Positions 1 through 48,275 of a stretch of DNA of 64,000 nucleotides are shown here, one piece after another. This DNA is from Planctomycetota bacterium (lineage in GTDB: Bacteria; Planctomycetota; UBA1135; UBA2386). The position numbers and the translations under genes are program-made. The stretch covers positions 3,072,001 to 3,136,000 of the forward strand of contig OZ245006.1 of assembly GCA_965223545.1 (NCBI GenBank), read 5' to 3'. Under the pieces are notes generated by a model. The model saw nothing but the letters and a program-made list of their open reading frames with translations, was not told where the DNA came from and did no database searches. The first letter of the stretch is position 1, and each line of letters starts with the position of its first letter.

Positions 1-3000
1 CGACCTCCAACAGCTCCCGCCAAATCGCCGCGACCTCTTCCTCCAGCTCCCCCGACGGCGCCACGTACCCCGCACCGCCGCGCGCTCCCACCTCGCGCCC
101 CATCAGCGCCGCGCGGTCCACCTTGCCGTTCGGCGTCAGCGGATACTCCGCCAGCTCCACCAGCACACCCGGCACCATGTACTCCGGCAGCGAACCGCGC
201 AGATGCTCGCGCAGCGCGCCCTCCGTCGCCTCCGCGTTGCCCGGCTCGACGCGGTAGAAGCCCACCAGCTGCACGTCGCCGCGCCGTTTGGTCTGCGCCA
301 CCACCACCGCGTCTCGCACGCCGCCGTGCCCCGCCAGCACCGCCTCGATCTCGCCCAGCTCGATCCGGAAGCCGCGCACCTTCACCTGGTGGTCGATCCG
401 GCCCAAGAACTCCAGCTCACCCGCGTTCGTGTAGCGCGCGAGGTCGCCCGTCTCGTAGATCCGACCCGTCTCCGCAAACGGGTGCGCCACGAACTTCTCC
501 GCCGTCAGCGCATCGCGACGCCAGTAGCCCCGCGCCAGCCCGTCACCGCCCAAGAACAGCTTGCCGGGAACACCCACCGGCACCGGCTGGCCGTGCCGGT
601 CCAGCAGGTACACCTCCGTGTTCGCGATCGGCGCACCGATCGGCACCGGACCGCTCCCCGACTCCACCCGGCCGCACAGCGACCAGATCGTCGTCTCCGT
701 CGGCCCGTACATGTTCCACACTTCGCCCACCAGCGGCAGCAGCCGCTCCGCCAGCTCACGCGGAAACGCCTCGCCGCCGCACAGCACCTTCAGCCCCGAC
801 AGGCCGCCCCATCCCGACTCCAGCAGCAGGTGCCACGTCGCCGGCGTCGCCTGCATCACCGTCGCGCCACACGACTCCATCAGCGCCGCCAGCTGCTCGC
901 CGTCGCTCGCCTGCGCGCTCGTCGCGATCTCCACCCGGCCGCCGACCAACAGCGGCAGGTACAGCTCCAGGCCCGCGATGTCGAACGAGATCGTCGTCAC
1001 CCCGAGCAGCGTGTCCTCGCTCCCCATCCCCGGGCTCGACGCCATCGCGCACAGAAAGTTCAGCAGCGCCCGGTGCTCGATCTGCACCCCCTTCGGCCGC
1101 CCCGTCGAACCCGACGTGAAGATCACGTACGCCAGATCACCGGGCCCCGCCGCCGGCGCCAGCGGCGCGGCGCTTTGCGCGGCGATCGCCGCTCGCGTCC
1201 CTTCCTCCTCGAGGTCCAGCACCGCCGGCAGCGACGGCGGTAGCCGTGGCAGCAGCCCGCTCTGCGTCACCAGCAGCGAGATCTCCGCGTCCTCCATGAT
1301 GAACGCCAATCGATCCGCCGGGAACGACGGGTCCAGCGGTACGTACGCGGCGCCGGCCTTCTGGATCGCCAGCAGCGCCACCAGCATCCCGACCGAGCGC
1401 TCCACCGACACGCCCACCAGCTGGCCACGAGCCACGCCCCGCGACGACAGCTCGCGCGCCAGCTGGTTGCTGCGCGCCTCCAGCTCAGCGTGGCTCAGCC
1501 GCTCGCCGCCGCACGACACCGCCACCGCGTCACCGCGCTCCGCCGCGACCCGGCTGAGCTCGGCCACCAACGTCGAGTCGCGCGGATACTCCCGCTGCGT
1601 CGCTGCACTCGATGCCACCACTGCCGCGCGCTCGCTCTCCGTCAGCAGCGGCAGCTCCCAGATGCTCGCTTCCGGCGACGCGGTCATCGCCCGCAGCAGC
1701 TGCAGATAGTGCTGCTCGAACCGGGCGACGGTGGCGTCGTCGAACAGGTCGGTGTTGTACTCGAACGCACCCTGCAGGTCGCCGCCGGCACTGTCGCCGA
1801 CGAACAGCGTCAGGTCGAACATCGCCTGACCGCTGTCGGGCAGCAGCAGCTCGACCTCGCAGTCGCCGAGCCGCGGCAGCTCCGCTTCCTGGGTCATGCT
1901 GAACAGCACCTGGAACAGCGGGTTGCGGCTCAGGTCGCGGTCGGGCTTGAGCTCGACGACGAGCTGCTCGAACGGCATGCCCTGGTGCTCGAACGCGTCG
2001 AGGGCGGTGCCCCGCACGCGCCGCAGCACCTCGCCGACACTCGGCGCGCCCGACAGGTCCGACCGCAGCACGAGGGTGTTCAAGAACAAACCGATCAAGG
2101 GCTCGGTCTGCGCCGATTCGCGCCCACCGGTCGGCGTGCCCAGCACGATGTCGTCCTGTCCGCTGTAGCGTGCCAGCAGCACCTTGAACGCCGCCAACGC
2201 TGCCATGAAGAACGTGCACCCGCGGGCGCGCGCCATCGCCTTGAAGTCGTCGACGACGGGCTTGGGCATGCGGAACACGCGCCGGCCGCCCGCAAACGTC
2301 TGCACCGCGGGGCGTGGCCGGTCGGTGGGCAGCTCGAGCACCGGTACGCCTGCCAGCTGCTGCCGCCAGTAAGCCAGCAGGGCACCACCGTGGGCGTCGT
2401 ACCAACGGCGCTGCCATGTGGCGTAGTCCGCGTACTGCACCTCGAGCTCCGGCAACGGCGACCGCTTGCCGGCACATCGCGCCTCGTACAGCGTCGCCAG
2501 CTCGTGGAACCAGATCCCGAACGACAACCCGTCGGTGATCATGTGCAGCATGGTGAACACGAGCACGTGATCGCTCTTGCCGAGCTGCAGGAGCACCAAC
2601 CGCAGCAGCGGCCCGGTGCGCAGATCGCATCCGGTCTCGCTCTCTTGCTGCGCGATCTTCAGCGCCGCCGCGAGCGGATCGTCCCGATCGCGCAGGTCGG
2701 TGCGCGCCAGCGTCCACGCCGCCGGCTCGTGCACCACCTGCACCGGCTCGTCGCCGGCGGTCTCGAACGTCGTGCGCAGCACCTCGTGCCGGCGGACGAT
2801 CTCAGCGATGCTCCCCTCGAGCGCGTCGGCATCGAGCGGACCGCGAAACCGCAGCATGTGGGACAGGTTGTAGGGCGCGGTGTCGCCGCCGAGCTCGCAC
2901 AGGAACCAGAACCGCTGCTGGCCAAAGGAGAGGGGCAGGGTCCCGTCACGCGGCACGGGCGGGATCACCAGCGGGTCTTCGGCACCGGCCGAGATCGGAT

Positions 3001-30901: not shown

Positions 30902-30915
30902 GCCGCCGTTTCTGA

Positions 30916-33134: not shown

Positions 33135-33325
33135 GGCTTTCTCCCGACGTGGCCGAACCTCGGGACCCTGTCCCGATGGCCGGAGGGTAGATCGGGTACG
33201 GTCCCTAGGCGACTTGACGTCGGAGCTGTCGATTTCCGCGTCGGCGCGTGGCGCGGCGGCACTCAAGACCCCGGGGCGAAGAACCGACAACACGATCGGG
33301 GGAGCCACTTACGGCTAGATCGCCG

Positions 33326-34522
33326 ATGAGCAGGATTGGAATCGCGCTGGCGTCCGGCAGTGACGCCGCTTCAACGACCGCCGACGCCACGCAGCGTGCG
33401 GCCAAAGACCTCGGCTGCGCGCCGGAGCTGGCGCTGGTCTTCTCGACGGACGGCTACCCCGCCGACGCCGTGCTGAGCACGCTGCGTGACCTGCTTGGCG
33501 ACGTTCCGGTCGCCGGCTGTCAGGCCCCCGGCGTGCTGTGCGGCGACGCCGTGACGCACGACGGCATCGGCGTCTTGGTCGCGGGCGGCGGCCAGCTGAC
33601 GATGCACTCCGCCGCTGCGGAAGGCGCCAACGTGGACTCGGCGGCGGCGGGAGCTCGATCGGCCGAGGCCGCCTTGGACGCCCTCGACGAAAGCCACCAA
33701 TCGCCCGAGTTCGAAACCTCGGTGCTGCTGGCGTTTCCGGACGCGATCGCCGGCAACCCGTGCGCCGCGCTTCGCGGCCTCAACTCATCGGTCGGTGGCA
33801 CGGTGCGCGTCGTCGGCGGCGGGGCAGGCGACAACCTGCGTTTCGAGAGCACCTACCAGTACGCGGATCGCGCGCACACCGGGGCCGTGGTCAGCGCTGC
33901 CCTGTCGGCATCCCGCCCGATCGGCACGGCCCTGCGGCACGGCTGTTCCGCGTGGGGCCCCCCGATGAAGGTGACCCGGTGCGATGGGAAGCTCCTGCAA
34001 GAGCTGGAGTGGGAGCCCGCCTACGAGCACTACGTGCGCGTCGTCGAGCAGGTTTCGGGCGAAGTCGTCGCCGCAGACACCTTCCAGAGCTACGCGCTCT
34101 TGCACCCACTCGGCTTGCCCCAAGAAGACGGCAACTTCGTGCTCCGTTCACCGTTCTCCCCCGGTGCCAGTGGAGAGATTCACTGCTGCTCCGACATCCC
34201 CTCCGACGGCGTCGCGCGCATCATGGTCGGGGACGAGGATTCGCTGCTGACCGCGGCTCACGATGCGGGCGCCGCGGCGGTCGCCGCCGTCGACGGTGCA
34301 CCCGCCGCAGCTCTGGTCTTTGCCTGCGTGTCCCGCGACCTCGTGCTGGGCGGAGCGGCCCAGGACGTCAGCCGAGAGCTCGCCGCAGTGCGCCGCGCCG
34401 TGGGTAGGGAGACACCGGTGTTCGGCTGCTTGACCTTTGGCCAAATCGGCACGCTCGGCGGGGGCTTGCCCCAGTTTCACTCCAAGTCGATCCAGGTGGT
34501 CGCGCTGCCGTCGGCAGCCTGA
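33326..34522 (+). CDS. FIST signal-transduction protein (second, divergent copy)
   Basis: VGGGAGDN, HGCSAWG, VFACVSR, GCLTFGQI, FHSKS. Confidence 0.88.
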   Translation: MSRIGIALASGSDAASTTADATQRAAKDLGCAPELALVFSTDGYPADAVLSTLRDLLGDVPVAGCQAPGVLCGDAVTHDGIGVLVAGGGQLTMHSAAAEGANVDSAAAGARSAEAALDALDESHQSPEFETSVLLAFPDAIAGNPCAALRGLNSSVGGTVRVVGGGAGDNLRFESTYQYADRAHTGAVVSAALSASRPIGTALRHGCSAWGPPMKVTRCDGKLLQELEWEPAYEHYVRVVEQVSGEVVAADTFQSYALLHPLGLPQEDGNFVLRSPFSPGASGEIHCCSDIPSDGVARIMVGDEDSLLTAAHDAGAAAVAAVDGAPAAALVFACVSRDLVLGGAAQDVSRELAAVRRAVGRETPVFGCLTFGQIGTLGGGLPQFHSKSIQVVALPSAA

Positions 34523-34539
34523 GCCACCACGCGTGTTCG

Positions 34540-36630
34540 ATGGCAGAGCCCGGCGCGCGCGACTCCGATCCGGCCGAGCGCTCGTTCGCCGAGCTCTCGG
34601 TGCTGTACGAGCTGACGGCCACGCTGGCCGACTCGCTCGACGGCAGCAGCGGCCTCGACGACTTTGCCGAGAAGTTGTCGCGCGTGCTGTGCGCCGAGAT
34701 CGTCGCGGTATTCACCGGCCCGGATCCGCGCGAGCTGTCGATCCGCGCCGCTGTCGGAGTACGGCGCAAGCACTACGAAATGCGCATTCCGCTCGACCTC
34801 CTCACTGAACTGCGCCAGTCGGGACCGGAGTGCCGGATCAGCTTTCCCGAGTCCGAGACGACCGATGAGGTCGAGACGGCAACGGCCGCCCGCGCGCAAT
34901 TGTGGCGGTTCAATCCGCGGATTGCTTGCGGTGCGGCGTTCCTGCTGCACACCGGCCGCGGCACTCTGGGCGTGCTCCTGGTCGGCAAAGTCGACGCGAC
35001 ACCATTCGCCCGTGGCACGCTCGGCATGATCGCCACGATGGCGCGCCGGGTCTCCGTGGTCCTGCACCACGCCCGCACCCGCGGTGAGCTCGAAGCGAAC
35101 GAGCAGAAGTACCGGACGCTGATGATGAGCGCCTCGGATGCGATCCTGGTCTACGACCCCGAGCGGGACGAGCTCGTCGACTACAATGCCGCCGCCGCGC
35201 GGCTGATCGGGATCGAGACGGATGTCGACCTGTTCGCCAGCGGCGCGCCGCTGTTGATGACGCACTTGCGGGCGCTCGGCGAGCTGCAGCGCGATGGTCA
35301 ACGAACCAACGCGTCGAGCCTGCCGATGGAGTGGCCGATCACCGGCCCGACCGGCACGCTGTTTCTCGACGCCGCCGCGTGCCCGGTCACGGTCGCCGGA
35401 CGCACCATGCTGCTGGTGACGGCGCGAGACGTCACGCGCCGGCGCCGAATGGAGAACGCGATGATCGAGGCCCGGGAGCGCGCCGAGGCAGCGACGCGGG
35501 CGAAGTCGGCGTTCTTGGCCAACATGAGCCACGAGATTCGGACACCGCTCGCCGGCATCATCGGCCTCGCGAGCATCCTGCAAGAGAGTGATCTGGAGAG
35601 CTCCGAGCAGCAAATGGTCGCCACCCTGGCGAACTCGGCCGAGGCTCTGTTGCGCATCCTGAACGACGTGCTCGACATGTCGAAGATCGAAGCCGGTCAG
35701 ATCGAGATCGAGCACACCGACTTCGACCTGCACGCGACCGTCGCCGACGTCCGCGACCTACTGGCGCAAATGGCAGCGGAGAAGGCGATCGACATCCGCT
35801 GCTCGATCGACGACGACGTGCCGCGGCACGTCAGCGGCGATCCACTGCGGCTGCGCCAGGTGTTGCTCAACCTCGGCTCCAACGCGGTCAAGTTCACCGC
35901 CGAGGGCGGTGTCCATATCGCCGTGCGGACGACCGCTCGGACGCGGCCCGACCGCACCGCGCTCCGGGTCGCGGTCGATGACACCGGTGTCGGCATCGCA
36001 CCCGAGGTCGCCCCCCAATTGTTCACTGCCTTCAGCCAGGCCGACTCCTCGACCGCCCGGCGCTTCGGCGGCACCGGGCTGGGGCTTGCCATCTGCAAAC
36101 AGCTCGTCCAACTGCAAGGTGGCCGCATCGGCTTCGAGCACTTGTCAGGAGGGACACGCTTCTGGTTCGAACTCGACTACGCGGTCGCGGACACACCGAG
36201 ACCGGTCCGGGCGCCGACCGAGGCCGTACCGGTCCCGGAGAGCGACATCCTGATCGTCGACGACAACGACATCAACCTCCGCGTCGCGGCCACGATCCTG
36301 ACCAAGCAAGGCCATCGAGTGGTGACTGCATGCTCGGCGGTCGAGGCCTTCTGCCAGCTCGAAAGCCGCCACTTCGACCTGATCTTCATGGACTGCCAGA
36401 TGCCGGGGATGGACGGCTACGAGGCAACGCGACAGATCCGCGAGGGGGTCGGCGATCACGCCTCGACACCGATCATCGCCCTCACCGCGAACGCGCTGAG
36501 CGGCGATCGCGAACGCTGCCTGGAAGCCGGCATGGACGATTTCTTGGCCAAGCCAGCGCGCGCCGCGGACTTCTTCGCGGCAACGCAGCGGTGGCTGACG
36601 ACGATGAAGGCGAGCGCGCGCCAGCGCTGA
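34540..36630 (+). CDS. Hybrid sensor kinase (GAF-like - PAS - HisKA - HATPase - REC)
   Basis: FLANMSHEIRTP, NLGSNAVKFT, FGGTGLGL, ILIVDDN, FMDCQMP, FLAKP. Confidence 0.93.
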   Translation: MAEPGARDSDPAERSFAELSVLYELTATLADSLDGSSGLDDFAEKLSRVLCAEIVAVFTGPDPRELSIRAAVGVRRKHYEMRIPLDLLTELRQSGPECRISFPESETTDEVETATAARAQLWRFNPRIACGAAFLLHTGRGTLGVLLVGKVDATPFARGTLGMIATMARRVSVVLHHARTRGELEANEQKYRTLMMSASDAILVYDPERDELVDYNAAAARLIGIETDVDLFASGAPLLMTHLRALGELQRDGQRTNASSLPMEWPITGPTGTLFLDAAACPVTVAGRTMLLVTARDVTRRRRMENAMIEARERAEAATRAKSAFLANMSHEIRTPLAGIIGLASILQESDLESSEQQMVATLANSAEALLRILNDVLDMSKIEAGQIEIEHTDFDLHATVADVRDLLAQMAAEKAIDIRCSIDDDVPRHVSGDPLRLRQVLLNLGSNAVKFTAEGGVHIAVRTTARTRPDRTALRVAVDDTGVGIAPEVAPQLFTAFSQADSSTARRFGGTGLGLAICKQLVQLQGGRIGFEHLSGGTRFWFELDYAVADTPRPVRAPTEAVPVPESDILIVDDNDINLRVAATILTKQGHRVVTACSAVEAFCQLESRHFDLIFMDCQMPGMDGYEATRQIREGVGDHASTPIIALTANALSGDRERCLEAGMDDFLAKPARAADFFAATQRWLTTMKASARQR

Positions 36631-36739: not shown

Positions 36740-37387
36740 CTACTTCGGCAGGCCGAGCTTGTCGAGCTTGGGCGCGATCACTGCGCGGCAGTAGCCCTGG
36801 CTCCGGTTGGCGAAGTAGTAGTCCTGGTGATAGGGCTCCGCCTCATAGAAGGTCGAGGCGGCGGTGATCTCGGTGACGATCGGCGCCGCGAAGTTCGCCT
36901 GGGCGGCGCGCATCGACACGCGCGCCGCTTCGGCCTGCTCGGGCGAGTGGTAGAACACGGCGGATCGATACTGGGTGCCGACGTCCGCTCCCTGCCGGTT
37001 CAGGGTCGTCGGATCGTGCAGCTGCCAGAACCACTCCATGACTGCGGCGAAGCTGATAACGCTCGGGTCGAAGACGACCTGCACGACCTCGGCGTGGCCG
37101 GTCTGCCCGGTGCAGACTTGCTCGTAGGTCGGATCCGGGATCTCGCCTCCCATGTACCCCGAGCGCACCTCGCGCACGCCTTCGACCTGCTGCAACACGG
37201 CTTCTACACACCAGAAGCAGCCCGCGCCGAGCGTCACCACTTCGGTGCCGCTCTGTGGCGGCGTTGTCGATGTTTCCTGCACACTGCCCTCGCTTCCACT
37301 TCCAGAGGAGCCGACCGCGAGATCGATCGCCGAGTTTGAGCACGCCGTCGCCAACAACAGAATCAAGACCGGAATCGACCGGGCCAC
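36740..37387 (-). CDS. msrA: Peptide-methionine (S)-S-oxide reductase, probable lipoprotein
   Basis: GAGCFWCVE, GHAEVVQ, RQGADVGTQYRS, AEPYHQDY, GYC; N-terminal LLLATAC lipobox; start approximate. Confidence 0.92.
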   Translation of the reverse strand: MARSIPVLILLLATACSNSAIDLAVGSSGSGSEGSVQETSTTPPQSGTEVVTLGAGCFWCVEAVLQQVEGVREVRSGYMGGEIPDPTYEQVCTGQTGHAEVVQVVFDPSVISFAAVMEWFWQLHDPTTLNRQGADVGTQYRSAVFYHSPEQAEAARVSMRAAQANFAAPIVTEITAASTFYEAEPYHQDYYFANRSQGYCRAVIAPKLDKLGLPK

Positions 37388-37436: not shown

Positions 37437-38354
37437 ATGTTCACCACCGCAACTCTGCTCGGTTCGTTGGCGCTCGCGGCCTGTGCCGTCGCGCAGCCGA
37501 AGCTCGAACAACTCTACGAAGAGCATCGAGCCACGGTCCCGGGCAATCGACAAAGCGAACCCATTGTCCGGTCCTATCGGCTGATGCGACCGGAGACGGA
37601 ACCCGAGCAGAGCTATCCACTGGTGCTGTTCCTGCACGGCGCGGGCGAGCGAGGCAGCGACAATTCGCGCCAACTCCGACACCTACCGGCATGGCTCGCC
37701 AGCGAGCGAGCGCGCCGAGAGCACCCCTGCTACGTCTTGGCCCCACAGTGCGCCCCGGGCGAATGGTGGGTCGATGGGGACGCGCGGCGCGCGCTGCGAT
37801 CCGACGCGCCGGTCGACGCGAGCCCGTCCAATTCGCTCCGGGCCGCGCTGGCAGCACTGGAGGACGTGATGCGCCGCGAGCCGGTCGACCCGGACCGGGT
37901 CTACTTGACCGGCCTGTCGATGGGCGGGTTCGGCGCATGGGAGCTGGCGATGCGCGAGCCCGAGCGCTTCGCCGCGCTCCTGCCAATCTGCGGCGGAGGT
38001 GACGCCCGCCGCGCCGCCGCACTCAAGACGATGCCGATCTGGGCGTTCCACGGCGCCGAGGATCCCGTCGTCCCACTGCGCCTGTCCCGCCTCATGGTCG
38101 AGGCCGTGCGCAGAGCGGGCGGCTCCGCCAAGCTGACCGAGCTCGACGGCGTCGGCCACGACGCGTGGACCCACGCGTACCGCCGGAGCGGCGCACTGGC
38201 GTGGCTCTTCGAGCAACGCCGCACGGCTGCCGCCGCGGCACCCTCCGGCGACGCGGCTGCGGACCGCGCGCCGAAGAGGCAGGACCCGCCCGCTCACTCG
38301 TACCAGCGAACGGCCGCCAACCGACGCTCGGCAGCGGGGGCGTCGGGGTCGTAG
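37437..38354 (+). CDS. Alpha/beta-hydrolase (predicted peptidase/phospholipase), probable lipoprotein
   Basis: LALAAC lipobox, PLVLFLHGAGERG, GLSMGG nucleophile, FHGAED, GHDAW. Confidence 0.88.
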   Translation: MFTTATLLGSLALAACAVAQPKLEQLYEEHRATVPGNRQSEPIVRSYRLMRPETEPEQSYPLVLFLHGAGERGSDNSRQLRHLPAWLASERARREHPCYVLAPQCAPGEWWVDGDARRALRSDAPVDASPSNSLRAALAALEDVMRREPVDPDRVYLTGLSMGGFGAWELAMREPERFAALLPICGGGDARRAAALKTMPIWAFHGAEDPVVPLRLSRLMVEAVRRAGGSAKLTELDGVGHDAWTHAYRRSGALAWLFEQRRTAAAAAPSGDAAADRAPKRQDPPAHSYQRTAANRRSAAGASGS

Positions 38355-40882
38355 CCCCGGGTCTCGCCAAAGCGACGCTGCAGCGCCTCGATGGCCAACC
38401 TCCTGGTGCCCTCGTCCGCCGACATCAACAGGCCGGCGAGATCGTTCTTCGCGGTGTCTTCACCGAGTTGAAGCCGGGTCCGCGCGACCTGCATCAGCAA
38501 GCGGTCGATGACCAAACCCTGCGGCACGCGTCCCTGAGCGCGCAAGGTGAGCAGCCGGTCCTGGTAGCGACTCAGCGCGGGCAGGTTGGCCGCGTCACCG
38601 CAGCTCTCCAGCGCCCAGCACGCCCAGGCGGCCACCGCGACCACCGGGTCGCGCAAAGTCGAGGCGAGCACCGGCGCGGCGTTGCCGCTGCCGATGTTGC
38701 CCAGGCACTCGCAAATCCGCGCGCGCTTGAGGTCGAAGCCGGCAGGGAACTTCAGCCCCTGGATGAGCGCCGGGACCGCCGACTCGCCCATCGCCAGCAG
38801 CTCGTCGACCAACTCTTGGTCGTCGCCGCCGGGCACGGTGCCCGCGCCGCCGCCCAGCTTCGACACCAGGCTGAACGCGTGCGCATGCGTCCGCGCATCC
38901 GGCCGCGGCGGCCGGCGCAGCACGTCGGCTCCACCGCTCTCGGCCCACCGCGCCTGCAGCAGCGCCAACGCCGCCAACCGCTCGTCGCGCGGCATGAACG
39001 GGTCGTAGCCCTCGTGCATGGCCGTCACCGCGAAGAAGGCCTCGAACGCCGCTTCGCGCAGCAGGTCGTCGGTCAGGTCGAGCTGCTCGAGCAGCACCGG
39101 GATGCCGGCCGGCGAGCCCATCGCCGCGGCCGCCTCTGCCAGGTCGCGCCGTGTTTCCAACCACGGCGCGGCGCGCAAGGCCGCTTCGATCGCCGGCAAC
39201 GCCTCGCGGTCGTCGAACAGCGCCAGCGCGCGCGCCGCGGCGCGGACCACGTCGGGATCACCGTCCGCCAAGAGCGGTCGCACCGCCGCCGCGTGTTGTT
39301 TGCCGTACAACAAGCCGAGCGTCTCCGCCGCACCGGCCCGATCGAGCGGCTGCGCCGCATCGAGGTCGTCCGCCAGCGCCGCCAGCGCGGCTTCCTTGTG
39401 CTCGCCCCAGGCAAACCGCGCCGCCAACTCTCGCGCATGGACCCGCACGTAGAGCTGCTCGTGATCCATGGCGGCGAGCAACGCCGGCGCAGCAGGGGCG
39501 CCGATGCGCTGCAGCACGCTCTGCGCCTGCTTCCACGTCTTGTTGTCCCACGACCCCAGCGCTTCGATCAACGCCGGCACCGCGGCGGCGCCGATCTCCA
39601 CCAACCGCGCTTGCGCGCGCCGGTTGCCCTCCGGCACGGGGAACTGGAACATCTCGATCAGCTTGGCGATGGTCGCATCGTCCGCGCCCTCGGGAACATC
39701 GACGGCGACCGTGCCGATCGGCGGTCTCGCGTAGTCGACGAGGTGCGCCGGGCCCGCCGCCTCGGCGGCGATCCCCTCCGGAGTCTGCACTCTCACGTCG
39801 GGTGCAGAGACGACCTCCTTGTCGGACGGCGTCACGCCGGCGAACGCCAACCGCCGCACCTCGAGCCGCCGCGCCAGATCCGGATGGTGATCCTCGATCG
39901 GGTAGTAGAGCTTGAAGTGCAACTCGCAGTCCACCGTGCCGTCCGCGACGCGGATCGGCACCCGGTGCTCGCGGCTCTCGCCGGCGGGGATCTGCGTGTT
40001 GACCGGCAGCTTCATCCCGTAGGGACGCTTGTAGGGATCGCGAAACACCATGCGCGATCGCGAGACCTCGGCGCCACTCTCGTCGCGCACGACGATCAGG
40101 GACTCGACCGACCGCTGCTTGAGCTCGGTCGGAAAGTTGTGCCCCGTACCGGTGTTGGCGATCACGACGACCGCTTCGTTGCCCTCGATCCTGGCCTCGT
40201 AGTCGTACGCGCGCCGCAGCTGCTGTTCACTGCGCGCACCGGGGAAAGCATGGCTCCGCACCCGGCTCGGCGGCTGGCCGACCGCGACCGGCCGCTCGAC
40301 AACCTGCATGTGGCACGTCATGCACTTGCGACCGCGCGCCTTTCCGGTCGGCGCGATCTCCCACTGATACGGAGTGCCGTGGTTGCGGTGGCAAGACGCA
40401 CAGGCCTCCACCGTGCCGACCTGGTCGTGGAAGGCCGTTTTGCACTCCGCCCCACCCTGGAACTGCCCATAGTCGTAGTCGGGCTTCCAGTGGCACGTCA
40501 TGCACGTGTTGCCCTCCTCCAGGTTGTGATGCCGCCGCAACGGGTTCATGCCGATGCCCGTCTCGAAGATCGGGCGCGGCGTATGGCAGCGGATGCAATC
40601 ACCGTGATCGAACCGGCCCGTGGCCAGCCTGGCCTCCTCGTCGGTGAACGCGCGGCCGTGGGTATTCTGCGCGTGCTCGGCGTAGATCGCCGGGTGGCAC
40701 CCAGCGCAAAAGACGCTCTTCATCACCTCCGCCTCGTGCGCCTGCCGCTCGGCCGGGTCCTGCGCAACCGCCGCCGGGGCGGGCTGCGCCCCCACGAACG
40801 AACCGGATCGGTCGACCAGTAGAGTGCAGAGGAGAACCGGTAGGCCGGCGGCCGCCGGCACGAGAAGTCGCATTGGCTTCAT
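38294..40882 (-). CDS. Exported multiheme (5x CxxCH) cytochrome c fused to HEAT repeats
   Basis: CAGCH, CIRCH, CMTCH, CASCH, CMTCH; HAFPG and GHNFPT; C-terminal HEAT repeats (AVPALIEAL, VVRAAARAL). Confidence 0.88.
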   Translation of the reverse strand: MKPMRLLVPAAAGLPVLLCTLLVDRSGSFVGAQPAPAAVAQDPAERQAHEAEVMKSVFCAGCHPAIYAEHAQNTHGRAFTDEEARLATGRFDHGDCIRCHTPRPIFETGIGMNPLRRHHNLEEGNTCMTCHWKPDYDYGQFQGGAECKTAFHDQVGTVEACASCHRNHGTPYQWEIAPTGKARGRKCMTCHMQVVERPVAVGQPPSRVRSHAFPGARSEQQLRRAYDYEARIEGNEAVVVIANTGTGHNFPTELKQRSVESLIVVRDESGAEVSRSRMVFRDPYKRPYGMKLPVNTQIPAGESREHRVPIRVADGTVDCELHFKLYYPIEDHHPDLARRLEVRRLAFAGVTPSDKEVVSAPDVRVQTPEGIAAEAAGPAHLVDYARPPIGTVAVDVPEGADDATIAKLIEMFQFPVPEGNRRAQARLVEIGAAAVPALIEALGSWDNKTWKQAQSVLQRIGAPAAPALLAAMDHEQLYVRVHARELAARFAWGEHKEAALAALADDLDAAQPLDRAGAAETLGLLYGKQHAAAVRPLLADGDPDVVRAAARALALFDDREALPAIEAALRAAPWLETRRDLAEAAAAMGSPAGIPVLLEQLDLTDDLLREAAFEAFFAVTAMHEGYDPFMPRDERLAALALLQARWAESGGADVLRRPPRPDARTHAHAFSLVSKLGGGAGTVPGGDDQELVDELLAMGESAVPALIQGLKFPAGFDLKRARICECLGNIGSGNAAPVLASTLRDPVVAVAAWACWALESCGDAANLPALSRYQDRLLTLRAQGRVPQGLVIDRLLMQVARTRLQLGEDTAKNDLAGLLMSADEGTRRLAIEALQRRFGETRGYDPDAPAAERRLAAVRWYE

Positions 40883-40994
40883 GAATCGCGGGATGAGCGG
40901 GCGCGGACCGCGGGGGAGGGGACCGGACACGATGAGTGTTAGCGCCGGAATCCGGGGTCGGCAACCCCGGAAACCCCGTTCGCCGCCGCGGCGC

Positions 40995-43001
40995 TCAGGA
41001 GTCCGCCGCGTACCCGAGGCAGACCAGCTCGCCCGCGCTGCTGCGGCAGTACACCCGCCCACCGGCGACGACCGGACTGGCCCAGCAGGCCCCTCCGGAC
41101 AGTGCATCGACCGCCCACCGCTCCGAGAAGCCCGCGGGCGTCGCGCCCGCCGCGACCAGACGGCCACGCGCGCTGATGATCACCAACTGATCGCCCGCCA
41201 GCGTCAATGCCCCCATGCCCAAACCGCGCTTGCGCCAGCGCTCCGCACCGGCGAGATCGACACACTTCAAGGTGCCCTCGTCGAATCCGTACAGATGACC
41301 GTCGAAGTGCACCGCTCCCGACAGCTTGGTGCGCAGTACGCGATTCTGCCACAGCGGAATCAAGCCGTCGTCGCCAATCCGCAGCAGTGCGCAGCCGTGA
41401 TTGTAGCCGGACGAGATGAAGATCCGGTCGTCGACGACCACAGGGGTCGACGCGTTGACGGTTTCCGGCCCCTTGCGCCAAGCGTGGAAGCCCACGGCGC
41501 TGCCGTCGGCGCGATCGAGCACGAACAGCCCCCGTTTGGCGAACGCCGCCAGGAGTCGGCGACCACGCCACGCGAACGGCGCCGGCGTCGAGTACATCGC
41601 AGCCAAGTCCGGCGACCGCCAGCGGAGATCGCCGGTCTCGGCATCCAGGGCCAACATGTCGGCGACTCCGTAGAAGATCGTGTCACCGACGACGATCGCC
41701 GAACCACCGAAGCCGTAGTCCGTTCCGGTCAACCCCAGCTCGCGCGCCAACGCGCGATGCCAGAGGAGGGCGCCGTCGGCGGCTGACAAGCAACGCAACT
41801 CGCCTTCCCGATGCGCCAGGTAGACGCGCCCGTCGTGCACGGCGGGGGTCGCCAAGGTGCCACCACTGTGACCGAGAGCCCGCAGTTGCGCGGGGTAGCG
41901 CACATCCCATTCGACCTCACCCGAGGCGGCGTCGATCCGCCACACGACATCCACTCCACCTTCCTCGTCGTGTCCGGCGGTGAACACGCTGCCGTCGACC
42001 ACCGCGACACTCGAGTGTCCGAGGCCCACCGCGGCACGCCACAGTACCGCCGGTGGCCCGTCCCCCCGCCAGCCGGGGTCCGCGCCGACGTTGTCCACTC
42101 TCGGCCCGCGCCACTGCGGCCAGTCCGCCACCGGGCTCGCCTTGCCCTCGCCAGCCGGACGGGGCGCGCCCTCGCGCGGCGGGCGGTCGGGGTCCTTCGA
42201 CGGAAGCGCGGCCGGCAGCGACGGCCGCGACAACACCTCCGGCATGGGTTCCGGTGGCCAGGGAATCTGCAGCCGTGCGGCGACGGCGGCGGCCTCCTCG
42301 CTCTTCTCGAGCGCGGCCAACAGTGCCGGCACCAGCTCCAGAGCAGCCAAGCCATCCAGCGCGGTGAACACCCGGCCGGAGCGGATTGCCGGTCGATTCC
42401 CGACCACGGTGAGCGCTGGGTACTCCGCCTGCAACCGCGCAACCATCGGCGAAGGCACCGTGATGCGCGCCTCACCGAGGACGCCCGCAGTCGCCAAGAG
42501 CCAGCTACCGGCCCCGACACCGACCACCGCGCGGGCGCGCGCAGAGATGTTCCGCACCGCGGCCAGCACCATGTCGTCGCCGGCGGTGCTGCGCACGTTG
42601 CCCCCAGGCACCACGAAGACATCGATCGGCGGCAGCTCGGCGAACGAGTACTCGGCGACCGCGGTCACGACGCCCTGCACCCGCACGGGGTCCAGGGTGT
42701 CGGCGATGGTGAAGACCCGGACGGCGCGCGAGTCCTGCAGCAGACCGGTCGCGGCGGCCAGCTCGAACAGGTCCACGCCGGGATACAGCAGCACGCCAAC
42801 CTGCGGGACGGTCTCGATCGGCACCAGCTGCATTCCACACTGGCCGCAAGCACCGGCTTCTGGATGGCGATCGCGGTGGCAATCGACACTGCACGGCGGG
42901 CAGACCCAGCTGCCGGCCGAGGAAGGCTGCGCCGCCGCCAGCGGCAAGACCCCGACAACGAGGGCGAGGAGGAGGGTTGAGCTGCGAACGAGCACCGACA
43001 T
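40995..43001 (-). CDS. Exported fusion: Cys-rich heavy-metal-binding motif - DJ-1/PfpI - PQQ-like beta-propeller
   Basis: WVCPPC...GACGQCGMQLVP; VGVLLYPGV, VFVVPGG (DJ-1); Pro-rich linker; DWPQWRGP, GHSSV, STPVV, WASPVV. Confidence 0.82.
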   Translation of the reverse strand: MSVLVRSSTLLLALVVGVLPLAAAQPSSAGSWVCPPCSVDCHRDRHPEAGACGQCGMQLVPIETVPQVGVLLYPGVDLFELAAATGLLQDSRAVRVFTIADTLDPVRVQGVVTAVAEYSFAELPPIDVFVVPGGNVRSTAGDDMVLAAVRNISARARAVVGVGAGSWLLATAGVLGEARITVPSPMVARLQAEYPALTVVGNRPAIRSGRVFTALDGLAALELVPALLAALEKSEEAAAVAARLQIPWPPEPMPEVLSRPSLPAALPSKDPDRPPREGAPRPAGEGKASPVADWPQWRGPRVDNVGADPGWRGDGPPAVLWRAAVGLGHSSVAVVDGSVFTAGHDEEGGVDVVWRIDAASGEVEWDVRYPAQLRALGHSGGTLATPAVHDGRVYLAHREGELRCLSAADGALLWHRALARELGLTGTDYGFGGSAIVVGDTIFYGVADMLALDAETGDLRWRSPDLAAMYSTPAPFAWRGRRLLAAFAKRGLFVLDRADGSAVGFHAWRKGPETVNASTPVVVDDRIFISSGYNHGCALLRIGDDGLIPLWQNRVLRTKLSGAVHFDGHLYGFDEGTLKCVDLAGAERWRKRGLGMGALTLAGDQLVIISARGRLVAAGATPAGFSERWAVDALSGGACWASPVVAGGRVYCRSSAGELVCLGYAADS

Positions 43002-43110
43002 GCGAGAATCCTCAGCGACACGGGAGCGAGGGGCGACCCGGTGCTCCGCGCCGCCAGGCGACATCTGCCGCCAAATCAAGGCCAGTCGCGCGGCTATGAT
43101 GCTCGGCGCC

Positions 43111-44367
43111 ATGCCGTGCCGCGCTGCCACGCTCGTCGCCGTCACCGCGTTCGTCGCGATCGGCGGGCCCGGTCTCTGCCAGGACCCCGCCGTCGACCAT
43201 CCCCACCAGCGACCGCCGGCCGACATCCCCGACGCCGAGCTCCTGCGGCGCGGCCTCGATCTGCTCGAGGCGGGGTGGTCGTGGGAGGCCGGCCGGTGGT
43301 TTCGCGAGCTCGTCGAGCGCGGCGACGAGCCCACCGGCTACCTCGGGTTGGCACTGGCGACGCGCGCTGCGCCGCGCCGGGCGGCGGAGTTGATGGCCAA
43401 GGCGACCGCCGCGCGGAAGAGCGCCGGACCGCTTGCGCGGCGGGTGATCGACGCCTACAGCGATTGCTTTCGGGCGGCGACGCGCCCGTCCGCGGCGGAC
43501 GAGACCTTCGACGCACCGCCGGACCCCGAGCGGCGCGCCGCCCTGCGCGCCGCGCTGGCAACGCTCGTGGAACAACACCCGGCCGCCGTCATTCCGCGGC
43601 AGCTGCTGGCGATCGAGCAGGACACGCCACCGCCCCCGACCGAAGCGGAGCAGGCCGGCACGTGTCTCCGACTCGCCCATCAGTTCCTGCGCGAAACCGG
43701 CGCGATGCCTTTCCTGATTCCCGGTCACGCCAGCCTGCTGTCGGCGGCGGGCGCCGGCGGCAACACCGCGCTGGCACGTCTCCCGCGCCACCCGCACCAC
43801 TCCGCCGCCGCAGCCGTCGACGCCACGCGGCTCGCCGCCGGCCTCCGCTCGCTGCTCCGTGATCCGAGCGGTGGCGATCGCGAGACCCCCCTGCTCTGGC
43901 AGCCGCGCCGCGCACCGGGCTTCGATCTCGAGCGCGGGCTCGGTGGGCGCGGCACTTCGGCGTCCCTCCGCGGCAAGCCCGCCCTGGTCGTGTTCTTCTT
44001 GGGGTTTGGTTGAGTGCATTGTGTCGCCCAGCTCGGTGAGCTGGACCCCATGGCCCCGGCGTTCGCCCGCGCCGGCATCGAGGTCGTCAGCATCGGCACC
44101 GACGATCGCGACCAGGTGCGTGCCGCCCACCAAGCCGCGCTGGAGAACGGCGTGGACCCCCTGCACTTCGACGTCTTGTGCGACCCCGACGGCGCCGAGT
44201 TCCGGCGTTGGGGCGCTTGGGACGAATTCGCCGACGAAGCGCTGCACGGCACGTTCTTGGTCGACGCGGAAGACCGCATCCTGTGGGCCGACATCAGCCG
44301 ACAGCCGTTCTTGCAGACCGAGTTCTTGCTGGCCGAGTGCCAGCGGTTGCTCGCCGCGTGGCGCTGA
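43111..44367 (+). CDS. Exported helical (TPR-like) domain + AhpC/TSA redoxin, probable selenoprotein (in-frame TGA 44011-44013 = Sec in U-V-H-C)
   Basis: ORFs 41980..44013 and 44014..44367 are in the same frame: ...RGKPALVVFFLGFG-TGA-VHCVAQL...VVSIGTD...LCDPD...HGTFLVD; SECIS-like hairpin downstream; start may be 43096. Confidence 0.85.
44023..44046 (+). promoter_or_regulatory. Putative bacterial SECIS element
   Basis: CCAGCTC-GGT-GAGCTGG (44028-44044), perfect 7-bp stem; the G-starting loop begins 22 nt after the UGA. Confidence 0.72.
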
Positions 44368-44380
44368 ACCCGCGGGCCGA

Positions 44381-45187
44381 TCAGCCGCGCCGCGAAGCCC
44401 GCTGCAAAGTGTAGACGTGGCAGTCGTAGCACAGTGCGACGCGGCCCTCGGCATCTGCGTGCGCGGTGTGCAGCACGACGAGCCTGCGCAGCAAGTCGTC
44501 CCGCCGTGGACCGGCTTCGGGAACCGTGGACACGCTGGTGGTGCGACCCAACAGCGCGTCGACGTCCAGCAGCTGCTGGTTGGGGAACGCCGCGTGCCGC
44601 AAGCCAAAGAACCTGCCGGTCGCGTCGATCACGGCCGGATCGAACCTGTTGCGCTCCACCGGTGGCTCGGCGTCGAACTCCTCCATCAGCGCCCGGTAGG
44701 CGTCGGTGAAGGCGTGGCCGGCCACGCGCTTGTTCCAAACCAGCATCAACCGGCCGGCCGGAGCCAAGATGCGCGCGAACTCGGCGGTCGCCGCTTCGAC
44801 GTCGAACCAGTGGAACGCCTGCGCGACGCAGACCAGACCGACGCTGCCCGCGGCCAGCCCCGTGGCGGCGGCTTCTCCCGCGAGCCACGTCACGTTGGGC
44901 GCGGCGACCGCCTGCGCGCGCATCGCGGCGTTGGGCTCGACCGCGAACACCTGCAGCCCACGCGCCGCCAGCCAGCGCGCCGAGATCCCGGTCCCCGCGC
45001 CGATGTCGGCCGCGATGGTGGCCACCGGTCCCGCGGCGGACGACAGCGCGAAGTCGAGCGCCGCGTCCGGATAGCCCGGGCGGTGCCGGGCGTAGTCGGC
45101 GGCGCGCACACTGAAGCGCGCGCGCGGGTCGGGCTCCGATGCTCCCGGCTCCGATGCCCGCGGCTCGGGATCACGCTTGGGAGTCAC
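44381..45187 (-). CDS. Class I SAM-dependent methyltransferase
   Basis: RFS..AADYARHRPGYP, ADIGAGTG, AVEPN, AQAFHWFD; GTGA overlap. Confidence 0.9.
   Translation of the reverse strand: MTPKRDPEPRASEPGASEPDPRARFSVRAADYARHRPGYPDAALDFALSSAAGPVATIAADIGAGTGISARWLAARGLQVFAVEPNAAMRAQAVAAPNVTWLAGEAAATGLAAGSVGLVCVAQAFHWFDVEAATAEFARILAPAGRLMLVWNKRVAGHAFTDAYRALMEEFDAEPPVERNRFDPAVIDATGRFFGLRHAAFPNQQLLDVDALLGRTTSVSTVPEAGPRRDDLLRRLVVLHTAHADAEGRVALCYDCHVYTLQRASRRG
45132..45166. repeat. 15-nt tandem repeat in the methyltransferase N-terminus (EPRAS/EPGAS/EP)
   Basis: ggctccgatgc at 45132 and 45147; partial copy at 45162. Confidence 0.65.
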
Positions 45188-46278
45188 GGACGCGGCATGA
45201 GGGCGATGCCGCCCGCTTGCAGCCCGACGTCGACGGTCGCGACCACGGCCAGCGCTTCCAGGTCGACGACGTCGACGGCACCGGGCTCGGCGCCGACGCC
45301 CTCGGAAGTGACGAAGGCGTAGCGGCCGTCGGCAGTGATCGCGACACCATGTGTCACCCCGCGCGCCGACGGTAGCCGGGCGACTTCGACGCCATCCTCG
45401 AGATCCCAGATCCCGATCGCGCCGGCGGTCTTGTAGGTCACCACCATCCGAGATCCGTCGGGGGTGACCTCGAGATTGTAGGGGCCGGCCGCGGTCTCGA
45501 AGCGGCGGACGACGACCCAGCGCTGCAGATCGACCTCGACCACCGTGGCCGCCCCGTTGAGCGCGCAATAGACCACGCGCCGCTGCGGGTGGGCGTGCAC
45601 CCAAGTCGGCTTGGCCGCCGATGCGTGGCCCTCGGGCGGCTCGACGTCGAGCTGCAGGTCGCGCACGACCTCGAAGCTGACCGCGTCGATCTCGAACAGA
45701 TGGCCGGACATCATCGCGCACGAGTAGTGGAACCGGCCGTCGGGCGACAGGCGCGAGCCGTGTGGCATCGGGCCCGTCTGCGTGCGCGCCACCTCGACCA
45801 TCTCCTCGGGATCGACGATCGAGACCGTGCTGGGCAGCATCCGGCCGTGCAGGTTGAAGTTGACGCAGTACAGCAGGCCGGTCGCCGGCGAGATCTGCAT
45901 CGTGGCCGGGAACATGCCCAGCTCGCATTCACCCACCAGCGCGTCGTCCTCGACCCGGTACTTGTAGAGCAGGCCGAACGGCTTGCCGTGCGCGATCGAC
46001 AAGAACCAGTGCCGGCCGTCGGCAGCGACCGTCAGGCCGTGTGGCCCCTCGATCTCCGTCGGCTGGTAGCCGACTTGAATGACGCGCTCGACGCGGAGCG
46101 ATTCTCCGTCGAACGCGACGCGGTGCACCTCGTCCGCCGACTCGCACGCGACGTAGGCGCGATACGGAGGCGTGGCGTCGACGGCGGCCGGGGCGACATC
46201 CTGTGCCCGCAGCCCCGCCGATGACAAGGCGACCGCGGCCAGAGCCAGCGCGCCGCGATGGAACGACCGCGCCTGCAT
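45184..46278 (-). CDS. Exported YncE/YVTN-type beta-propeller
   Basis: Signal peptide; EGPHGL, MPHGSRLSPDG, GPYNLEVTPDG, THGVAITADG; TGATG overlap. Confidence 0.85.
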   Translation of the reverse strand: MQARSFHRGALALAAVALSSAGLRAQDVAPAAVDATPPYRAYVACESADEVHRVAFDGESLRVERVIQVGYQPTEIEGPHGLTVAADGRHWFLSIAHGKPFGLLYKYRVEDDALVGECELGMFPATMQISPATGLLYCVNFNLHGRMLPSTVSIVDPEEMVEVARTQTGPMPHGSRLSPDGRFHYSCAMMSGHLFEIDAVSFEVVRDLQLDVEPPEGHASAAKPTWVHAHPQRRVVYCALNGAATVVEVDLQRWVVVRRFETAAGPYNLEVTPDGSRMVVTYKTAGAIGIWDLEDGVEVARLPSARGVTHGVAITADGRYAFVTSEGVGAEPGAVDVVDLEALAVVATVDVGLQAGGIALMPRP

Positions 46279-48275
46279 CACCCGCGCCGCCTGCCGGTGT
46301 CCTCCACCAGCTTGACCGCCCATAGGCCGCTGTTCCAATCGGAGAAGAAGATGTGGCCCTTGTGCGGCTGCGGCCCCCACACCATCGGGGCGTTGGGGAC
46401 CACGCCTTTGGGGTGCGTCGGCAGGAACCACGCGATCTCGCGCCCCTGCCGGTAGAGGTCGCCCATCAGCTCGCCGGAGACGTCGACGACGCGCAGGCCG
46501 CCGTTGTAGTAGGCCACGTACATCGTGTTGCCCTCGATCCACAGGTTGTGCGTCCCGGCCTCCGGCACCTCGTAGCGCGCCACCTCGGCCGGCGCGTCCA
46601 CGTCGGTGAAGTCGATGAAGTGGATCCAACCCCGCGCGTAGGTGGGGTCGTTCTTGACGCTGAGCCCGAACGGAAACGCCTCGTCACCGGCGACGACGTA
46701 GAACTTCTGCGTGTCCGGGCTGCGCCACGGAAACGCGGCGTGGTTCCAGCCGGTGGGATACATGTAGCTGCCGAACTCGACCGGCGCCGATGGCGAGCCC
46801 CCGGCGACGCCGTTGCCGACGTCGACCATCCGCACGCCGTAGCTCCAGTTCGAGGAGAACGCGATGCCGTCCTCGATCCACACGTCGTGGATCGAAGCCC
46901 CGGGCTCGAACAGCTGGAAGGAGCCGACGCGCGCCGGCGCGCGGGGCTCGTTGATGTCCAGCACGTCGTAGCGGCGGCCGGCGCTGAGCGCGTAGACGTG
47001 GCCCTTGTCGATGAACAAATTGTGCACGCCACCGGTCAGCTCTTCGGTGAACTCCGAGATGACCGCGGGCTTGCGCGGGTCGGCGACATCGATCAGCACG
47101 ATGCCGTTCTTGCGGTTGGAGGCCCCCTCGCGGCTGATCACACACAGCCTGCCGTCCTCGCTCACCTTGACGTCGTTGACGGTGCGCGCGTCGACAGTGA
47201 CCGTCGAGATGCGCTCGATCCGCGCCGGGTCGGTCACGTCCCAGAAGATGGCGTCGCCGTTGGCGCCCCAAGTACCGGTGACCGCGTAATCCCGGCCATC
47301 GACTCCCTCCCAGACCCAAAGGTCCGAGGTGTGCACGTCGAGCACGGGGCCGTGGCCGACCTTGATCAGCTTCTGCTTGGTCTCGAACCGCGGTTTGCAC
47401 CGCACCACCTGGCGCGCGACCACATCCCCACAGCTGGCGAGGATCGTGTACAGCCCGGGCTGCTCGGCGACGAACCGCCCATCCGGCTCGATCTGGCCGG
47501 TGGCCGCGTTGCCGAGCGTGTCGTCGGGCGCGGCGCGGAAGGTCCATTCGACCGGCACACCGGTGACCGGCAGACCAGCACCGTCGACCGCCGACGCGGC
47601 GCAGCGGAGCACGTCACCCGTGCGCGCCTCGGCGGGCAGCCCATCGATGCGCAGGCCTCGGACCGGGTTGTCCACGACCTCGATCTCGTGCTCCACCGCG
47701 AGGCCGCCGCCTTCGGCACGCAGCACCAGAGGGCCGGGCCGCAAGCCGGTGAGATGGCCGTGCGCATCGAGTCCGGCCACCGATCGGTCGGACACCGACA
47801 GCGAAACCTCGAGGTCCTCGCGATGGAAATCACCTTCGGCCAGAACCGCGCCGACGACGCGCACGCTCGTACCGGTGTACAGGCGATCACCGACGCCACT
47901 CAGCTCGATCCGCTCCGGAGTCGGCTGTGGCACGACGACCGGCACGGTCGCCTGCGGGCCACGCGCGCCCCCCACCACCGCGCGCACGACGATCTCGAAC
48001 GCGCCCGCGCGCAGGGCGTGCACCTCGCCGTCGCGAGAGACCCGCAGCGACCGGCGAGCACGCGAGAAGAAGAACACGTCGCCGTCGACCGGCCGGCCGC
48101 CGACGTCGACGAGCTCGGCGTCGAGCCGAGCCTTCTGACCGACCGGCAAGGTCAGCTGCGGCGGCGTCACGCGGACGACGAGATCCTCGACCGACACGTC
48201 GGGTCGCTCACCCTGTGCCGGAAGAGTCAGCGCCAGGGCGGCGGCGCAGCCGAGAGTAAGAACGGTGCGAGACAA
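46278..48275 (-). CDS. Exported Ig-like + LVIVD-repeat protein
   Basis: N-terminal Ig-like segments; TSDLWVW, NDVKVS, GVHNLF, IHDVW, THNLW, YYNGGLRVVDVS. Confidence 0.85.
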   Translation of the reverse strand: MSRTVLTLGCAAALALTLPAQGERPDVSVEDLVVRVTPPQLTLPVGQKARLDAELVDVGGRPVDGDVFFFSRARRSLRVSRDGEVHALRAGAFEIVVRAVVGGARGPQATVPVVVPQPTPERIELSGVGDRLYTGTSVRVVGAVLAEGDFHREDLEVSLSVSDRSVAGLDAHGHLTGLRPGPLVLRAEGGGLAVEHEIEVVDNPVRGLRIDGLPAEARTGDVLRCAASAVDGAGLPVTGVPVEWTFRAAPDDTLGNAATGQIEPDGRFVAEQPGLYTILASCGDVVARQVVRCKPRFETKQKLIKVGHGPVLDVHTSDLWVWEGVDGRDYAVTGTWGANGDAIFWDVTDPARIERISTVTVDARTVNDVKVSEDGRLCVISREGASNRKNGIVLIDVADPRKPAVISEFTEELTGGVHNLFIDKGHVYALSAGRRYDVLDINEPRAPARVGSFQLFEPGASIHDVWIEDGIAFSSNWSYGVRMVDVGNGVAGGSPSAPVEFGSYMYPTGWNHAAFPWRSPDTQKFYVVAGDEAFPFGLSVKNDPTYARGWIHFIDFTDVDAPAEVARYEVPEAGTHNLWIEGNTMYVAYYNGGLRVVDVSGELMGDLYRQGREIAWFLPTHPKGVVPNAPMVWGPQPHKGHIFFSDWNSGLWAVKLVEDTGRRRG

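Follow-up and report, generated by a model that had tools for sequence, protein, structure and literature searches.

A redoxin gene split by an in-frame TGA in a planctomycetal genome very likely encodes one exported selenocysteine-containing redox protein

Within the 64,000-nucleotide stretch of planctomycetal DNA analysed here (hereafter the window), a redoxin gene is interrupted by an in-frame TGA, and the question is whether its two halves form a single selenoprotein and, if so, what that protein might do. The TGA (44011-44013, U301) is the single internal stop of a 418-aa frame at 43111-44367 on the forward strand, in the context FFLGFG-U-VHC-VAQL. A preliminary description of the locus had placed both halves in one frame, and this holds: each scores as coding in a hexamer model trained on the same genome (0.28 for the upstream and 0.60 for the downstream half, vs. 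-0.85 and -1.43 for the remaining two forward frames of the downstream half). Overall, the split gene very likely encodes one exported redox protein with selenocysteine (Sec) in its active site, organized as follows (short and long denote the ~420-aa and ~800-aa forms of the family discussed below):

43111..44367, +, read-through gene of 418 aa (frame, hexamer score and AlphaFold model); an alternative start, ATG 43096, would make it 5 aa longer
43111..43179, +, probable signal peptide, residues 1-23, with cleavage before Q24 (read by eye)
43231..43854, +, putative TPR-derived helical region, residues 41-248 (model helices; profile alignment probability 100)
43909..44280, +, AhpC/TSA-type thioredoxin-fold domain, Pfam residues 267-390 (Pfam and fold matches)
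44011..44013, +, TGA as probable selenocysteine U301, position 1 of U-x-H-C (frame, homologue column and four other genomes)
44020..44022, +, C304, second motif residue, aligned with the peroxidatic Cys of peroxiredoxins
44028..44044, +, predicted upper hairpin of a bacterial SECIS element, 7 bp stem, GGU loop, G at +22 (hand check against the consensus)
44179..44181, +, C357, third Cys, kept in 45 of the 46 short-subfamily rows with a residue there
44245..44247, +, H379, invariant His (45/45 short rows, 119/119 long rows)

The family consensus AQDP comes right after the hydrophobic stretch, residues 1-23 are disordered in the AlphaFold model, and export to the periplasm appears highly probable. 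No match to a sigma-70 promoter or an intrinsic terminator was found within 42700-44600. The preliminary description had called for confirmation of the TGA, and contigs from sequencing runs X1 and X3 do read TGA and cross the locus with 0 differences; these are assembled contigs rather than raw reads, from two samples of one study that is possibly the source of the analysed DNA, and runs X5 and X6 do not cover the TGA. Because the X1 and X3 contigs are identical here and the same TGA occurs in four further genomes, a sequencing error at this position is unlikely.

Comparison with homologues places the TGA on the first Cys of a CxHC motif, in line with the CxxC that had been read from the sequence. 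Among 54 database matches, position 301 is Cys in 46, so that every intact homologue has Cys and none has Trp or any other residue; 7 matches, including the half of this very gene, stop exactly before the column at FFLGFG; another begins just past it. The downstream half used as a query gave 21 matches, with the intact motif in 4 and a start past the column in 17, the latter being protein records that were mostly read without the underlying stop codon. Public databases store the two halves as separate proteins, which is the mis-annotation that had been predicted, and the record titles of relatives are mostly labelled Planctomycetota.

At the genome level, the ~420-aa short form was detected in 19 of the 339 genomes of the order, all 19 belonging to one family, and its column codon is TGA in 5 genomes and TGC or TGT in 14. 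The other four TGA-form genomes (G312, G313, G314 and G315) each carry selA and selB, and the proteins of the TGA genes in the five genomes are 46-57% identical to the window protein over the aligned part. Just 2 of the remaining 124 matches in the order's genomes have TGA, both being divergent paralogues of 620-770 aa (L038, in G023:C6, and L039, in G013:C237) that fall outside the short clade, have non-canonical hairpins and are possibly independent Sec gains or broken genes. In a 401-genome sample of the phylum, 47 genomes matched at 53 places, with TGA in the window's genome only, a count that represents a floor given the stricter criteria of this first look. The TGA orthologue in G315 (G315:C67:21800-22996 and onward) has a BNR sialidase-like domain fused to its C-terminus, and the database divides it into two proteins (P0054 and P0050). 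A search of metagenome contigs with a degenerate DNA pattern modelled on the TGA form yielded 9 matches, none shown to be homologous (4 short unrelated frames, 1 unrelated motif only and 4 without a matching frame).

All four Sec genes that the preliminary description had proposed to look for are present in the genome: selA, selB and selD score above cut-offs, and a tRNA-Sec with a TCA anticodon represents selC. The selA gene adjoins selD, which bears an in-frame TGA of its own. Of 20 relatives tested, selA occurs in 20 and selB in 19, and therefore the Cys forms live in Sec-competent hosts; across the family, selA is found in 84 of 91 genomes.

The consensus for bacterial SECIS elements has a loop of 3-9 nt with G in position 1 or 2, a stem of 4-16 bp, a spacing of 16-37 nt and an energy of -7.5 kcal/mol or lower (PMC13188914). 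Checked by hand, the window hairpin (CCAGCTC-GGT-GAGCTGG, 21 nt spacer, -13.1 kcal/mol for 44014-44060) falls within every one of these bounds as given there, and it stands where it had first been noticed, 22 nt past the UGA and with a G-first loop. As a background, we used 3275 ordinary TGA stops and 5867 in-frame Cys codons of the window's genome: a G-first loop at +15..30 on a stem of at least 7 Watson-Crick pairs follows 1.5% and 0.6% of them, respectively, and one on a stem of at least 6 pairs follows 3.5% and 2.2%. Across the family, a G-first hairpin of at least 6 pairs was found in 5/5 TGA short forms, 0/14 Cys short forms and 0/11 Cys long forms tested, the five TGA genes being kin, so that these counts rest on related sequences. 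Their stems are 6-7 bp long, with a G-first loop and one shared register. Part of this signal is apparently protein-level, since the peptide alone gives at least 6 pairs in 21% and at least 7 in ~5% of 20000 synonymous recodings (genome codon usage); TGA forms encode QL(G/V)EL across the hairpin, and Asp replaces Glu in most Cys forms. The folding energy of the hairpin is no better than that of shuffles (z -0.2 to +1.1), a 60-nt fold prefers a different pairing, and an Rfam search gave no relevant match.

Two other readings of the TGA have to be weighed against this evidence. Were it a real stop, the locus would hold either a nonsense-broken gene or a second protein starting at the GTG after the TGA. 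TGA is indeed an ordinary stop in this genome (it ends 3275 coding frames), a GTG follows it both here and in G315, two further database halves start there, most relatives use Cys, and in the two divergent paralogues the TGA is not followed by a canonical hairpin. But the same TGA recurs in five genomes despite the protein divergence given above, the next codon is GCG, which is no start, in 3 of these 5, both halves are conserved as well as coding, the break falls inside one fold at the catalytic residue, and the presence of the hairpin tracks the TGA exactly; a real stop is thus very improbable. Harder still to credit would be a UGA read as Cys or Trp through an altered genetic code or a suppressor tRNA: Cys would agree with all intact homologues, but Trp occurs in none of them, the sole TCA-anticodon tRNA found is the tRNA-Sec, and thousands of genes end in TGA. 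With the machinery, the conservation and the hairpin all observed, we infer with near certainty that Sec is inserted at 301 by SelB, which would recognise the hairpin 22 nt past the UGA.

The AlphaFold model (52 sequences; pLDDT 90.8, pTM 0.88) consists of an N-terminal helical part and a thioredoxin fold. As anticipated, the redoxin domain straddles the TGA (Pfam AhpC-TSA, PF00578, 58.1 bits for a cut-off of 26; Redoxin, PF08534, 36.2 bits for a cut-off of 26.6). Structurally, the domain matches peroxiredoxins as well as proteins of the ResA/TlpA type (Z up to 19.4; rmsd 2.0 across 152 aligned residues), in searches with both models that hit almost solely the redoxin domain and barely covered the helical part. 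Residues 1-260 have no Pfam match. Region 41-248 matches two parts of an ~800-aa paralogue, its N-terminal repeats and its MPF...LPRHP segment, and lacks the His motifs, so that the TPR-like character first proposed for this part is borne out by homology to a TPR-bearing family; Atlas look-alikes of the helical region (at 0.91, TPR_2 in 50% of members, recognition below the strong threshold) are a weak lead in the same direction.

U301 sits at the thioredoxin-nucleophile position, at the N-terminal start of helix 1 (UxxC). When aligned with peroxiredoxins, L297 falls in the Pro column, U301 in that of Thr, C304 in that of the peroxidatic Cys and H379 in that of Arg, and both the PxxxT/SxxC motif and the catalytic Arg are absent from the protein. 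The cis-Pro that precedes strand 3 in thioredoxin, ResA and TlpA is likewise absent, with a His at the equivalent Arg column; the peroxiredoxin Arg position has been equated with the thioredoxin cis-Pro, which may prevent metal binding (PMC2757866). Because Pro, Thr and Arg are all replaced and His occupies the cis-Pro site, the active site conforms, by alignment, neither to the peroxiredoxin triad nor to the usual thioredoxin pattern. The label AhpC/TSA, applied at the outset, therefore stands for the fold but not for a peroxiredoxin, the catalytic triad being missing.

Evolutionarily, the alignments at hand make the window protein a shortened member, by paralogy, of a planctomycetal TPR-redoxin family whose proteins are ~800 aa long. 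The same genome encodes a second family member, a Cys-containing protein of 830 aa (L040:2917-5406, +; G000:C1:1477916-1480405), with 47% identity between the two redoxin domains. The long family is large (5051 matches among 8000 scored), and its members bear TPR matches and a core in which eight His are invariant (119/119 rows). The His cluster of the 830-aa paralogue (H264-H347) lies in the repeat region and resembles a metal site; related His clusters, none of known function, are also present in Verrucomicrobiota, Acidobacteriota and fungi. Profile alignment covers the two families from one end to the other and shows that the short form has lost the His core as well as the C-terminal repeats; intermediates of ~600-740 aa with degenerate His motifs occur in another family. 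A 37-row redoxin-domain tree recovers the short clade (100/97) and joins it to the ~600-aa intermediates (91/93).

Within the short form, a 70-row tree, built after removal of 10 duplicates and a single long-branch row, nests a Cys clade of 41 rows (98/90) inside a basal grade of TGA and presumed-TGA rows; 5 changes are counted on it. A 27-row tree (5 truncated and 27 near-redundant Cys rows dropped; 4 changes) rejects the TGA genes as one clade (p-AU 2e-5), this monophyly test having been set after seeing the 70-row tree. Cys relatives interspersed among the TGA forms retain hairpin-coding residues, G009 carrying a 5 bp remnant, and both Cys genes with hairpin remnants use TGT, a rare codon. 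That the TGA forms are not one clade suggests a single Sec gain followed by several reversions, which is favoured because the shared hairpin register, the G009 remnant and the rare TGT codon all fit it. Against this history, the change counts (4-5) fit gain or loss alike and the basal branch order is unsettled, and repeated Sec gains are a possible alternative. Our preferred history, which we hold to be likely, is that a duplicate of the ~800-aa Cys-containing TPR-redoxin shrank via ~600-aa intermediates to ~420 aa, and that this short form gained Sec once and then reverted several times to Cys in hosts that kept the Sec machinery.

Downstream of the gene, on the opposite strand, lie two conserved propeller genes:

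45184..46281, -, c1, YncE-like beta-propeller with a signal-like N-terminus and invariant His, Met and Cys
46278..48275, -, c2, Ig-like domains and an LVIVD propeller, with six invariant His

Across 18 loci of relatives (4 kb flanks, some shortened), c1 is present in 16 and c2 in 13, again on the opposite strand. Among the 91 family genomes, c1 occurs in 22, i.e., in 19/19 with the short form and 3/72 others; short form and c1 share one contig, within ~10.5 kb, in 18 genomes, and are on separate contigs in G297. Outside the family, 8 genomes of the 401-genome phylum sample have c1, which in 5 adjoins a long or intermediate form (c2-c1-long form co-directional in 2, c2-c1 facing an intermediate form in 3); the other 3 show no long or intermediate neighbour in the stretch examined. 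Other long-form loci have the c1-c2 pair in 3 of 12 cases (some loci shortened), and the pair is absent beside the genome's own 830-aa paralogue. Overall, c1-c2 stays with the redoxin family in three gene arrangements. The gene and c1-c2 are tail to tail, and hence not co-transcribed. Linkage across lineages suggests a shared task, and linkage inside the family (f1) may simply reflect common descent. Here alone among 19 loci, the gene is separated from c1 by a class I methyltransferase gene (44381-45187, -), which looks like a recent insertion.

Taking these elements together, the best explanation, history included, is on balance probably that of a periplasmic, thioredoxin-type selenol-thiol oxidoreductase that uses Sec and serves partner proteins. 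The U301 selenolate would attack a disulfide or an oxidised thiol of the partner, C304 would resolve the mixed bond to leave a selenenyl-sulfide, and DsbD, the membrane domain of which is encoded in the genome, would supply electrons from the cytoplasm. With the usual cis-Pro or Arg missing, the site would be tuned by H379 and H303, and the helical region, having lost its own His cluster, would act as scaffold and partner-binding surface. The likeliest clients would be the neighbouring propellers, a role suggested for c1 and c2 by gene linkage. The missing cis-Pro, which defines thioredoxin and ResA/TlpA reductases, speaks against a thioredoxin-type reading.

Other functions are conceivable for the same selenoprotein. 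Sco binds copper via a His in the loop before strand 3, and in a Sco-like scheme a metal, for instance copper, would be bound or reduced by U301, C304 and H379 (perhaps H303) and passed on to the His-rich sites of c1 and c2, the clients of the long ancestor including its own His cluster. The invariance of the eight long-form core His and the persistence of the three genes together in three arrangements would both fit, but the motif is CxxC rather than the CxxxC of Sco, the gene is not among the genome's three Sco (PF02630) matches, it aligns weakly with the genome's Sco (probability 39), over a stretch that ends before the His, which in Sco lies two residues earlier (by eye), H303 is Gln in two TGA forms, and no gene for copper transport stood out among those window proteins that were scanned; we consider metal handling unlikely. 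A more elaborate version, a so far undescribed three-gene periplasmic system of planctomycetes in which a dedicated maturation factor, with a Sec/Cys-x-His-Cys and His site and repeated Sec-to-Cys reversion, would load or reduce the metal centres of two His-rich propeller metalloproteins, strikes us as doubtful. If true, it would represent a metal chaperone that uses Sec on a peroxiredoxin-like fold, and a bacterial family reverting from Sec to Cys several times despite retained Sec machinery. No less doubtful is a stand-alone periplasmic peroxidase, in which the selenolate would reduce peroxides, C304 or C357 would resolve and the neighbours would be incidental. Peroxiredoxins are the top fold and sequence matches (Z 19.4-18.1, vs. 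~16 for ResA-type proteins), C357 is kept in the short form and the genome has several other candidate Sec thiol-redox genes; on the other hand, substitutions affect every residue of the peroxiredoxin triad (Pro, Thr, Arg), scores are far under the AhpC, PrxU and BCP cut-offs, and the conserved c1-c2 linkage is left unexplained.

Elsewhere in the genome, an ab initio read-through scan, itself unspecific (91 TGA vs. 119 TAG and 15 TAA), yielded twelve further candidate selenoprotein loci (L114-L125, G000:C1), chosen by motif and by eye and most with signal-like N-termini. They include deiodinase-like (with EF-hand-like repeats), MerP-like, TlpA, MsrA, BCP, DUF3179-like, AhpD-like and thioredoxin-like types, as well as a VPGUxxT candidate with two TGA that scores above its NCBIfam cut-off. 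A G-loop hairpin of at least 6 pairs (G-U allowed) occurs at 10 of the 15 candidate sites tested. L121:87-1283 (-, TGA 6247186; LGDIDGFL-U-SAG), which has a clear 6 bp GGUC-loop hairpin and no NCBIfam match, resembles the selenoprotein N motif. L125:107-1168 (-, TGA 1338116) combines a thioredoxin-like domain (YAP-U-GPC) with a following helical region and has a weak DsbH match and no G-first hairpin by the rule used. L116:161-1582 (+, TGA 492917) is an FG-GAP-like repeat protein (NNW-U-CIG) with neither an NCBIfam match nor a canonical hairpin; an FG-GAP-like selenoprotein family is absent from the table of PMC13188914, and L116 is possibly a new selenoprotein family or a broken gene.

The window itself holds several other unusual arrangements. 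Divergently upstream of the gene, 38294-42833 (-) encodes a HEAT-repeat multihaem cytochrome c as well as a protein in which a DJ-1/PfpI domain is joined to a PQQ-type propeller. Further away, 29588-36630 has two FIST-domain genes, each by histidine/hybrid kinases, on both strands, followed by a Cys-type MsrA (36740-37240, -). An amino-acid permease fused to a 2OG-Fe(II) dioxygenase (11374-13809, +) lies downstream of a stand-alone KS-KR-ACP polyketide module (7464-11231).

Among known systems, no NCBIfam model reaches its cut-off, the best match being the SelL-related redox protein NF040769 (31.5 bits vs. 120), which has another architecture. We take PRX_like2 (cd02970) and SelL-related proteins to resemble the window protein in their CxxC-type motif and peroxiredoxin-like fold without a triad. 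Peroxiredoxins (AhpC, PrxU, BCP/PrxQ, Prx6 and AhpE) are the closest solved folds, with C304 at the peroxidatic Cys, but in the window protein Pro has become Leu, Thr has become Sec and Arg has become His. ResA, TlpA and CcmG, the top Foldseek matches, share a putatively exported CxxC thioredoxin fold with the same insertion; unlike them, the window protein lacks the cis-Pro, has no membrane anchor that we could see and carries a large helical domain. Sco1/SenC belongs to the same fold branch and has a His in the loop before strand 3 (by eye), but the window protein has CxxC rather than CxxxC, a His that is apparently two residues later and no PF02630 match. Its direct parent would be the uncharacterised ~800-aa family ('redoxin domain-containing protein', with Planctomycetota and Verrucomicrobiota labels), which differs from the short form in having Cys, the invariant His cluster and more repeats, and the function of which is not known; the fold matches listed include no solved structure of its helical part.

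Selenoproteins with related redoxin domains are already described: Table 1 of PMC13188914 has a Prx-like thiol:disulfide oxidoreductase (PF00578, UxxC) and a Redoxin family selenoprotein (PF08534, UxxC). The window protein resembles these in its Pfam domains, its UxxC motif, its Cys homologues and a SECIS just past the UGA, and, when set against their published description rather than the sequences of representatives, is unlike them in its TPR-derived helical domain, its FLGFG-U-xHC motif and the His at the cis-Pro site. Sec-peroxiredoxins have PxxxTxxU (PMC13188914), with the Sec three residues later than in the window protein. The terms 'TPR' and 'Planctomyc' are absent from the main text of the same review. 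Sec-redoxins are thus known, and searches of models and papers yielded no instance of a TPR-derived helical region combined with UxHC and no paper on this family; these genes could already be filed under the Prx-like or redoxin families in BSepDB or in supplementary lists.

Bacterial Sec-to-Cys changes are described as rare and documented mainly for FdhA and SelD (2026 review, PMC13188914), and for this reason the short-form family may serve as a test case. It offers matched Sec and Cys orthologues, all in Sec-competent hosts, in which the SECIS hairpin is present, decaying or gone. More broadly, the locus would add a selenoprotein subfamily that public annotation cuts in half, and draws attention to a thioredoxin-fold site where His may stand in for the cis-Pro or the Arg, as well as to the conserved propeller pair, itself uncharacterised, as likely clients.
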